From positions 1,922,001-1,986,000 of the forward strand of contig CP089281.1 of the NCBI GenBank assembly GCA_023920165.1: a DNA stretch of 64,000 bases. The letters run 5' to 3'. Below the pieces are notes generated by a model. It was given only the letters and a program-made list of their open reading frames with translations. It was not told the DNA's origin and did not search any database. A program made the translations under genes and the position numbers. This document shows, in pieces, positions 4,189 through 6,504 of the stretch. Positions within the stretch are counted from its first letter, which is position 1. Every line of letters begins with the position of its first letter. This DNA comes from Curvularia clavata (Eukaryota).

Positions 4189-6504
4189 TCAAAAGAACGT
4201 TCCCTTTTGACCAGCACGAAGACTGCTGTTCTCAAGAACAGCATCAGCATCGTGGTCGTCAATCGCCCCAGGCCGGTCGATAGACCGGGGAATGGGTCGG
4301 TCGAAAGCGTCAAAGCGACGGCCCTGAACCTTGGCCATGACCCAGAGGAAACTGATGCGAAGAGCGCAAGCGCCAAAAGCCCACAAGAGACCGCCAAACG
4401 GCGCGGCCACGAAAGCTCCTGCCCAGAAGTTAGCAAACACGTACGATAATCGAATGGGACCAGCATTGACTTACCAAAAGCGCTCCAGTCATTTGCATAC
4501 AGTCCGCCCTCAAGTAAAAGCAATTTACCAGCAAGGGTGGCATCGCCATCATAGTACACAAGACCAAATAGAAAGATGGTGAAGATACCTCCAAGGCCTC
4601 CGACCACAAAATCAAAGCCACGGTACCAGTAGAACCTCTCACTCAAGCCAATGACCAAGCAGGGAACAACAGCCGCACTGACCAAATCACTGATCAAGAA
4701 GATTTGCAGAATATCCGGGCTGCGTAGTGCGACGACAACGACAGGGAAGATGAGGGCCACAACGCAGGCGCGGATGATCCATATGTTCAACTTGTTGCGG
4801 AAGAAGTCGTTGCTTCCCGTGCTAATCATGGCGGACTGGAAGGAGTCGAACGCAGCGGTTGAAAGCGAGACTGTCATGACGAGTACCACGCCTACAACCC
4901 AAGCAGGTAGCTTTTCAAGAAGAAGAAAGAAGGCGAGGGAGCCATTCTCTTCATCACCAATAGTGTAGGCACCGGACCATGCAGCGAGCATGCCCGCGAC
5001 GCCAAGCAGCGTGAGAATGATGAGTATGCCCATGCTTGCGAGTGAGACTCCAATCCACAAGTCCTTGTCTGTGCGAGAGGCAAAGGTGCGCATCCAGAAT
5101 CCTGAGAGGAAAAAGTCGTTGGTGAGGATCGCGACAGGGAGAATGTAGATGAGTTGCCATCCTAGCAGACTGGACTCAAGGTAGCCAGATTTGTCGATCA
5201 ACGAGCGGTCAATGTCGGTTTCAACGCCCACAGCAATCACTCCCAAGATGATGAGACCGATGACCATCACACCCTGGATATTGTCGGTTATAAAAGAGAC
5301 TTTGAAGCCACCAAGCGCTGTCGCTGTTAGTTGATCATCCCTTTGCTTTGACAAAATCACCCTTACATGTATAAATGGTAGTGACGGCACACTCGACGAT
5401 GACAACGGGAAGCCCATTCAATCCCGTCAGCAGTGTGACGATTTGTTGCAATGCAGACAGCTCGGCAACCATGTACAGAAACATGGTTATGAGTGTGCAA
5501 GCACTGAGGAATATGCCTGCAACTACCCCGTAACGCTGCCTGGTCCATTCAGTCAGGACAAAGCCTTCGGGGCATTTGCGTCTAATGATGGGTCCCAGCG
5601 CGCCGAAGACAAGAAGCGGCAGAGAGGAAGACAAGGCGTATACCAGTAAGCCCTGAACGCCAGCAATGGTGGCGATTTGAGGGTACGTGAATAGAATACC
5701 CGATCCGAGAGCTATGAGTTAGGAAAGCCTAGGTCAGCGTCAAGTCAATGAGGGGGAGGAAGGGGAAGTGTAAGGGGGAGTAGCGGCAGCACGTTCCTCA
5801 CGCAAGTATTATCTTGATCGAGTTCTTACGGTACTTCTCAGCTTCCCCTTGGCTGGAGTCAATACATCTCAGATGCATGGACCCAGCCTCAGTTCGGCGC
5901 CCGCAGTGTAGCCGCACAAAAGACTGACCTCATACCAGACGCGCAAGAGTAACAACGACTCTTGTGCGTAGTATTTTTTTGAAGCCAGCTTCTGCGAGAG
6001 ATCTCAATACGAACCTAGAGGATTTCAAATTGCCTCATACGAGGACATGCGCTCCAAACGACGACATGATCCTACTGACGATAAAAAAAAGTCGCCGATC
6101 ATGGTGGAATACCGATACTGCCGCTGCCTCTTCATGTGCAAAGCACAGGTGCACGAATGCACTCACCCGATGCGATGAAATTGAAAGCGAGCGGGACGCC
6201 TGTAACAATGGTCAGCTGATCTTCCTTTTCACTAAATACAAGGAAGAATTATTTTGCGCAAAAAAGGCGCAAAGCCGGGGAAGACGCTTATGCTGACCCT
6301 TCTGTGTGCGGTTGCTAGACAGCCACTCCGTCTTGGACTGGTGTCGCAGTCGCCATGCAACGAAGCATCCCAGGACCCTGAATCGTACATTGGTTAGGAC
6401 AAGTCCACAGGTCGCCAAAAACAAACTATGACGTCTACTCACAAAAAAGAGCCAAGGGTAAGGTAGATGATGGCGTTGGACGCCGGCTGCGATGGCATGC
6501 CCAT
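4189..6504 (-). CDS. Sodium:solute symporter family (DUR3-like) transporter, TPP-riboswitch-associated type (Neurospora NCU01977-like; probably thiamine or precursor related)
   Basis: Six exons splice in frame: 6504-6443, 6377-6298, 6199-6167, 5711-5367, 5317-4475, 4418-4189. Product MGMPSQPASNAIIYLT...NRTQKGVPLAFNFIASALGSGILFTYPQIATIAG...CPEGFVLTEW...LGGFKVSFITDNIQG... with many transmembrane segments. Confidence 0.9.
5783..5915 (-). ncRNA. TPP (thiamine pyrophosphate) riboswitch aptamer inside intron 3 of the SSS transporter
   Basis: The minus strand reads GCGGGCGC...GCUGAGAAGUACCGUAAGAACUCGAUCAAGAUAAUACUUGCGUGAGG. It has the conserved UGAGA junction, P2 GCGG/CCGU, P4 CUC/GAG, P5 CAAG/CUUG closing AUAAUA, a long P3 hairpin (GGCUGG..GUC..AUGCAUC/GAUGUAU..GAC..CCAGCC) and closing pairing GCGGC..CAC/GUG..GCCGC. 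Confidence 0.95.

Follow-up and report, generated by a model that had tools for sequence, protein, structure and literature searches.

A TPP riboswitch of the NCU01977/DUR31 type in a long intron of a putative thiamine-transporter gene of Curvularia clavata

The transporter gene and its surroundings

The locus described here lies in a 64-kb (64,000-nt) stretch of Curvularia clavata DNA, which is referred to as the window. The minus strand of the window encodes a 530-aa transporter in six exons, and the third intron of this gene contains a TPP riboswitch aptamer. The features of the gene and of its third intron are as follows.

4189..6504, minus strand: transporter coding sequence, six exons, 530 aa (spliced model, RNA contig joints, homology)
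6504-6443, 6377-6298, 6199-6167, 5711-5367, 5317-4475 and 4418-4189, minus strand: the six exons (in-silico splicing)
5712..6166, minus strand: intron 3, 455 nt, with the riboswitch and the expression platform (gene model; joint 5711>6167 in runs X1 and X15)
6161..6166, minus strand: S1, the productive 5' splice site GUGAGU (sequence, gene model, RNA contigs)
6132..6134, minus strand: in-frame UGA, 11 codons into intron 3 (sequence read in the frame of the model)
6115..6125, minus strand: alpha element, AGCGGCAGUAU (duplex search; fits the consensus RGCGGYRRY of PMC3597705)
6008..6016, minus strand: alternative 5' splice site AG/GUUCGUA, with its donor GU at 6014-6013 (RNA joint 5711>6015; motif in relatives)
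5906..5915, minus strand: 5' strand of P1 and its extension (GCGGC..CAC), the competitor of alpha for alpha' (alignment, fold)
5777..5914, minus strand: TPP aptamer, RF00059 match (covariance model, alignment of relatives, fold)
5782..5792, minus strand: alpha', GUGCUGCCGCU, the 3' shoulder of P1 (alignment, pairing)
5712..5722, minus strand: branch-point-like CUAAC at 5722-5718 and 3' splice site AG at 5713-5712 (sequence)

Splicing the six exons in silico produces an open frame of 530 aa. The five introns are 65, 98, 455, 49 and 56 nt long, and each has GT..AG borders. A preliminary description of the window had placed intron 3 at 6166-5712 and had pointed out that the other introns are much shorter; its borders were exact and the difference in length is confirmed. 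The spliced model is collinear with a Lojkania enalia protein (P0062, 82% over residues 1-498) and with a 'urea transporter' of Curvularia kusanoi (P0250, 85% over residues 1-530). When a 292-aa stretch of exon 5 was used as a query, the matches were Pleosporales proteins with an identity of up to 94%, and among the longer proteins a 605-aa Curvularia clavata record matched at 100%. The window protein is also 52-53% identical, end to end (over residues 1-521), to two Candida proteins (P0121 and P0128).

The assignment of the protein to the SSS family rests on homologues because Pfam searches with single exons were either sub-threshold (SSF at E 0.0025 for exon 4 alone) or, in one search with the large exons alone, without any match. 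Full-length relatives carry PF00474 and are labelled 'urea transporter'. According to Donovan et al. 2018 (PMC5997356), DUR31 is a member of the SSS family that carries thiamin in Candida; it is orthologous to NCU01977 of N. crassa and has an identity of ~12.6% to DUR3. By homology, the window gene is a member of this NCU01977/DUR31 thiamine-transporter group, its orthology to NCU01977 being established through the Candida DUR31-type proteins; the host gene is therefore not a new one. By analogy, its substrate is probably thiamine. The preliminary description had proposed a DUR3-like permease that is regulated by thiamine and carries thiamine rather than urea, in agreement with what PMC5997356 reports for DUR31, and had not recognised this permease as the NCU01977-type transporter that it listed. 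The two are one gene family, and as a result the thiamine proposal was already published and its interest had been overrated.

A metagenome scan with exon 4 recovered 65 related loci of 49-98% identity. The protein of one of them (L033) is 94% identical to a Candida orthopsilosis record (P0121) and 80% identical to a C. albicans record. The L033 intron occupies the same codon position and is 351 nt long, and read-through meets a stop after 58 aa. PMC5997356 gives the very same two values, 351 nt and 58 aa, for the DUR31 gene of C. parapsilosis.

The public annotation of the locus is misleading. The 605-aa Curvularia clavata protein P0241 ('transporter' / 'Sorting nexin-3'; window 7659-4192, minus strand) is a chimera whose residues 1-132 come from an upstream PX-domain gene (7659 to ~7140), joined to what exons 4-6 of the transporter encode. 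Exons 1-3 and the intron with the riboswitch are left out of this model, whereas the RNA contigs favour a transporter gene of its own with six exons. PF00787 was present in 8 among the 120 longer matches listed, which suggests from sequence that fusion models of a PX domain with the transporter also occur in other Pleosporales. A further record, P0268, is fused to a phosducin domain. Many annotated orthologues (389-480 aa; P0002, P0004, P0034, P0086 and P0100) start inside or just after exon 4, in models without the three short 5' exons. An early N. crassa gene model was misannotated in the same way, as noted by Li & Breaker (PMC3597705). In other words, the long intron derails gene callers.

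The gene is flanked upstream by a PX-domain, sorting-nexin-3-like gene (7439-7137, minus strand; PF00787, E 1.7e-22) and downstream by a phosducin-like gene (3583-2990, minus strand; PF02114, E 1e-8). To our knowledge, neither neighbour has a link to thiamine.

The TPP aptamer in intron 3

A covariance-model search of positions 5600-6300 matched RF00059 on the minus strand at 5914-5777 with 43.7 bits and an E of 3.3e-7, and the match extends over the full model (positions 1-105 of 105). This E refers to the 701-nt search against 4227 families and becomes ~3e-5 when scaled to the 64-kb window. The next-best Rfam matches in the same segment had E values above 3. When Rfam was applied to the whole 64-kb window at gathering thresholds, nothing was reported; the aptamer has 43.7 bits versus a gathering score of 54.3 for RF00059. 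The low score is explained by 54 nt inserted in P3 and by a missing P3a, and the gathering score is an operational cut-off and not a structural feature.

All of the TPP landmarks named in the preliminary description (UGAGA, P2, P4, P5 with an AUAAUA loop, and an extended P3 hairpin) were found. CUGAGA is located at 5841-5836, P2 is present, the P4/P5 hairpin with its AUAAUA loop spans 5822-5797, and the P3 extension forms a 54-nt hairpin at ~5896-5843. The distance from the end of the RF00059 match to the 3' splice site AG is 64 nt. Folded in isolation, the 140-nt aptamer forms the extended P1, the P3 hairpin and P4/P5 (-49.4 kcal/mol, z -2.39). The window contains the ligand-contact motifs listed for TPP aptamers in PMC5882874, namely CUGAGA, a P5 loop that contains UAAU, and a pair of G's in the P4/P5 arm with a spacing of 18 nt, and the ligand-contact columns are invariant or nearly so across 51 aptamers. 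As judged from its sequence, the intron-3 element is a TPP riboswitch aptamer and would bind TPP. Together with the family of the homologues, the RF00059 match bears out the earlier proposal of a TPP riboswitch in an intron of a DUR3-like SSS permease.

Splice sites and predicted long-distance pairing in intron 3

The splicing of the gene was checked with contigs of four sequencing runs from four studies (X1, X5, X9 and X15), none on record as RNA, their RNA origin being deduced from spliced contigs. Exon makes up 64% of the stretch used to look for such runs, and eight sequencing runs contained about 0.59 of its words. Introns 1, 2, 4 and 5 were skipped at exactly the predicted borders in all four runs, and thus the contigs derive from spliced RNA. 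The contigs indicate presence only, and carry no RNA level or growth condition.

Three kinds of RNA were seen directly across intron 3. Removal of the full intron (joint 5711>6167) occurred in X1 and X15. A second joint, 5711>6015, removed 303 nt and occurred in three of the four runs (X1, X5 and X15), and the same three runs had unspliced contigs spanning 5685-6044. Contigs covering 6015-6196 (6010-6198 in X9) read through S1. Every intron-3 joint ended at 5711, where a pyrimidine-rich tract precedes the 3' splice site, and both joints were supported by short contig sides of 27-29 nt. As far as presence in contigs goes, X9 had neither intron-3 joint and X5 lacked 5711>6167. Transcripts that do not use S1 meet the UGA at 6134-6132 and encode a 69-aa stub. 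Two overlapping donor-like sequences (GGUAUGAGGUCAGU) also lie at 5941-5925 (minus strand), directly upstream of the extended P1, at the place of the proximal site S4 in N. crassa. Contigs of all four runs left these donors unused, and no donor adjoining the aptamer was used.

The alternative donor that was used appears to be a recurrent feature of these introns. Of 50 distinct related introns, 39 had AG/GUUCGUA in the segment from alpha to the aptamer. None of the 50 had it on the opposite strand, and among 1000 shuffles it turned up in 13; the GGUUCGUA donor was absent from the yeast-type introns of L033 and L037. The motif was not found in the main texts of PMC3597705 and PMC5882874 or by full-text search. 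One tentative reading, to which we give slightly less than even weight, is that the internal donor belongs to the expression platform of NCU01977/DUR31-type introns across Pezizomycotina as a conserved component not described so far, a non-consensus 'decoy' 5' splice site inside the alpha-alpha' loop that would be used when TPP frees the donor. Separately, a pairing of the GGUUCGUA donor with conserved aptamer segments was considered; at most 5 bp could be found by eye, and the idea was dropped.

Alpha (AGCGGCAGU) starts 41 nt after S1, which is within the published distance of <60 nt, and alpha' is separated from exon 4, whose first base is 5711, by 70 nt. The two elements can form 11 contiguous bp, a length reached by 4 of 200 shuffled alpha' sequences, and alpha is the best duplex partner of alpha' within 1100 nt upstream. 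As isolated duplexes, alpha-alpha' has -24.0 kcal/mol versus -15.5 for the 5' strand of P1 with alpha'. Further evidence for the pairing comes from relatives. At least 10 contiguous alpha-alpha' bp, 208-576 nt upstream of CUGAGA, were found in 33 of 50 valid distinct loci, which are those left after dropping L015 and L019 as artefacts of too little upstream DNA. Compensating changes in the flanks were observed as well, such as CCGCUUC with GAAGCGG, CCGCUCUGA with UCAGAGCGG, and GUUGCC with GGCAAC.

A thermodynamic fold of the whole intron did not predict alpha-alpha' (pair probability ~0.1) and paired alpha elsewhere in its MFE structure; this 471-nt fold is not taken as a test of the pairing. 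In the MFE structure, the alpha region (6129-6122) forms 8 bp with CGCUG.CCU at 5739-5731, adjoining the branch-point region, and in this model the pairing may have arisen by chance.

Typical values given in PMC3597705 are an alpha' commonly <60 nt from the 3' splice site and an intron of 550-650 nt, and introns of 650-900 nt are reported by Mukherjee et al. 2018 (PMC5882874). Intron 3 of the window gene falls outside these values, with its alpha' at 70 nt and its length of 455 nt. However, related introns range from 351 to 815 nt and their distances from alpha' to exon 4 from 47 to 124 nt (581 in L037), both ranges being taken from the 42 rows with S1 located, some of them near-duplicate loci, and not from 19 rows in which the S1 pattern gave no match. 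This wide spread indicates that the published intron length and alpha' distance are typical values and not limits.

How might TPP control the splicing of intron 3? A mechanism can be proposed from experiments on NCU01977 in N. crassa (Li & Breaker 2013, PMC3597705). There, alpha', the 3' shoulder of P1, pairs in the absence of TPP with a distant alpha (RGCGGYRRY) that commonly lies <60 nt from S1, and this pairing promotes S1 use. TPP binding sequesters alpha' in P1, and internal donors are used, giving truncated products. The same paper lists this arrangement in Pyrenophora tritici-repentis and Stagonospora nodorum. By extension, at low TPP the alpha' of the window would pair with alpha and draw S1 near the 3' splice site; with S1 in use, splicing would take out the entire 455 nt, leading to the 530-aa transporter. 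When TPP is high, P1 of the aptamer would close and sequester alpha', S1 use would drop, and splicing would move to the internal donor at 6014 or the intron would be retained. Both products would run into the UGA 11 codons into the intron and encode the 69-aa stub. The window thus very probably holds an NCU01977/DUR31-type TPP riboswitch toward the 3' end of a long intron that interrupts the coding region of a thiamine-transporter gene in a Curvularia-like Pleosporales fungus.

Alternatively, a functional aptamer could act locally without alpha-alpha', like Candida DUR31 or the 'Type III' of Mukherjee et al., with TPP binding governing intron retention or access to nearby donors such as GGUAUGAGGUCAGU upstream of P1. 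The probability of only ~0.1 for alpha-alpha' in the whole-intron fold would suit this explanation, as would the yeast-type introns of L033 and L037, in which the aptamer occupies the same place but neither alpha nor alpha' is present. In the window, however, alpha conforms to the consensus of PMC3597705 and lies as far from S1 as reported there, and in relatives it co-varies with alpha'. Unspliced contigs over the aptamer and the 3' splice site (three of four runs) would likewise be expected from local control of retention, but the contigs use no donor adjoining the aptamer, and the alternative donor observed is enclosed by the alpha-alpha' loop, which is also the case in N. crassa. A TPP response does partly persist in N. 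crassa after alpha deletion (Li & Breaker, PMC3597705). On balance, purely local action is unlikely, and control of S1 through alpha-alpha' is preferred.

Conservation among relatives and likeness to known systems

An nhmmer profile of the 3' half of the aptamer matched 59 of the 65 related loci, and each of these matches is in the coding orientation and precedes the one to exon 4. Five of the six loci without a match have no upstream DNA and the sixth is L026, so that the aptamer is at the same place in 59 of 60 loci with upstream DNA. RF00059 was run on 20 of the 65 loci, picked for short length and including L026, and matched 19 of them with 29.6-53.0 bits, all under the gathering score. 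None of the 20 loci reaches the Rfam cut-off, nor does the window. This fungal TPP riboswitch lineage as a whole therefore scores below gathering, and routine annotation misses the riboswitch.

An alignment of 51 distinct aptamers showed a nearly invariant core and a P3 that ranges from almost nothing to >150 nt. Across these aptamers, the P1-P5 pairs were formed in 91.4% of 1172 cells, versus 25.6-42.7% when the partners were slid, although the tested structure was named from the Rfam alignment and derived from one aligned sequence, and so favours itself. P2, the base of P3, and P4/P5 were paired in 98-99%; P1 was weakest at 77.5%, partly because of alignment register. Nine pairs changed on both sides, versus 3.0 +/- 1.1 in shuffles. 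The covariation is modest because the core is so conserved.

In many non-Pleosporales relatives (e.g. L011, L018, L024 and L044), the variable P3 arm contains a recurring pair of motifs, GGAUCCAAC(C/U)UC ... GGAGAGAUC, at alignment columns ~110-250. Only GGGUCCAUGCAUCUGAGAUG, a loose version of these motifs, occurs in the P3 arm of the window aptamer. The recurrence in sequence suggests a conserved sub-structure inside the P3 extension of these relatives.

L026 has, at the riboswitch position, a 225-nt intron (420-645) without the aptamer and with an alpha-like GAGCGGUAGCA ~70 nt after the donor. Its protein is 62% identical over residues 56-530 and 66% over residues 1-58, and exons 1-3 are fused. 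This locus looks like a loss of the riboswitch.

Could the aptamer of the window be an inherited relic that no longer regulates, with the alternative transcripts being constitutive splicing noise? L026, in which the intron and an alpha-like sequence exist without an aptamer, lends itself to such an explanation, but the aptamer is kept in 59 of 60 loci with upstream DNA that span 49-98% exon-4 identity, and the core and alpha' are constant next to a P3 of variable sequence and length. Invariant columns among the 51 aptamers number 26, and by definition all of them are intact in the window. A relic is very improbable. A chance resemblance to the TPP motif, for which the score under the Rfam gathering threshold might speak, has practically no likelihood left, given the E of 3.3e-7 over the full length of the model, and is already refuted by orthologues that carry the same element at the same position.

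The riboswitch is therefore real and well supported, and it is of a known kind, the NCU01977/DUR31 type having been described in Neurospora and Candida; the preliminary description was right that the class is known. It resembles that of N. crassa NCU01977 (PMC3597705; 'Type II' of PMC5882874) in its host gene family, in having the aptamer close to the 3' end of a long intron within the coding region, and in an alpha that fits RGCGGYRRY <60 nt from S1 and makes 11 contiguous bp with an alpha' that is the 3' shoulder of P1. Internal alternative donors whose products have premature stops are likewise common to both. Unlike NCU01977, in which the riboswitch is reported in intron 2 of about 600 nt with three alternative donors, the window has it in intron 3 of 455 nt, with alpha' 70 nt from exon 4 and one alternative donor in the contigs. 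The NCU01977 mechanism was shown by experiment, whereas the window is known from its sequence and RNA contigs.

The window also resembles DUR31 of C. parapsilosis and C. albicans (PMC5997356), whose protein is orthologous (52-53% identity) and whose intron follows ..NF(I/V)AS, holds a TPP aptamer and leads to a premature stop on read-through. In contrast to the window, the Candida-type introns of L033 and L037 have no alpha, alpha' or GGUUCGUA donor. The substrate of Candida DUR31 was established experimentally in that report, whereas thiamine is the presumed substrate of the window transporter. Close counterparts are the Type II 'urea transporter' riboswitches of Bipolaris maydis and Parastagonospora nodorum (PMC5882874, Supplementary Data S1), which, compared by table rows, belong to six-exon genes of Pleosporales, as in the window, with an intronic riboswitch ~0.55-0.6 kb from the gene start. 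The difference from these catalogued cases is the species, the window being assigned to Curvularia clavata by the 100% protein match.

The window thus adds one Pleosporales species to a known pairing of riboswitch and gene, for which the mechanism is known in N. crassa and the substrate in Candida. The conserved alternative donor would be a small new detail of this system.
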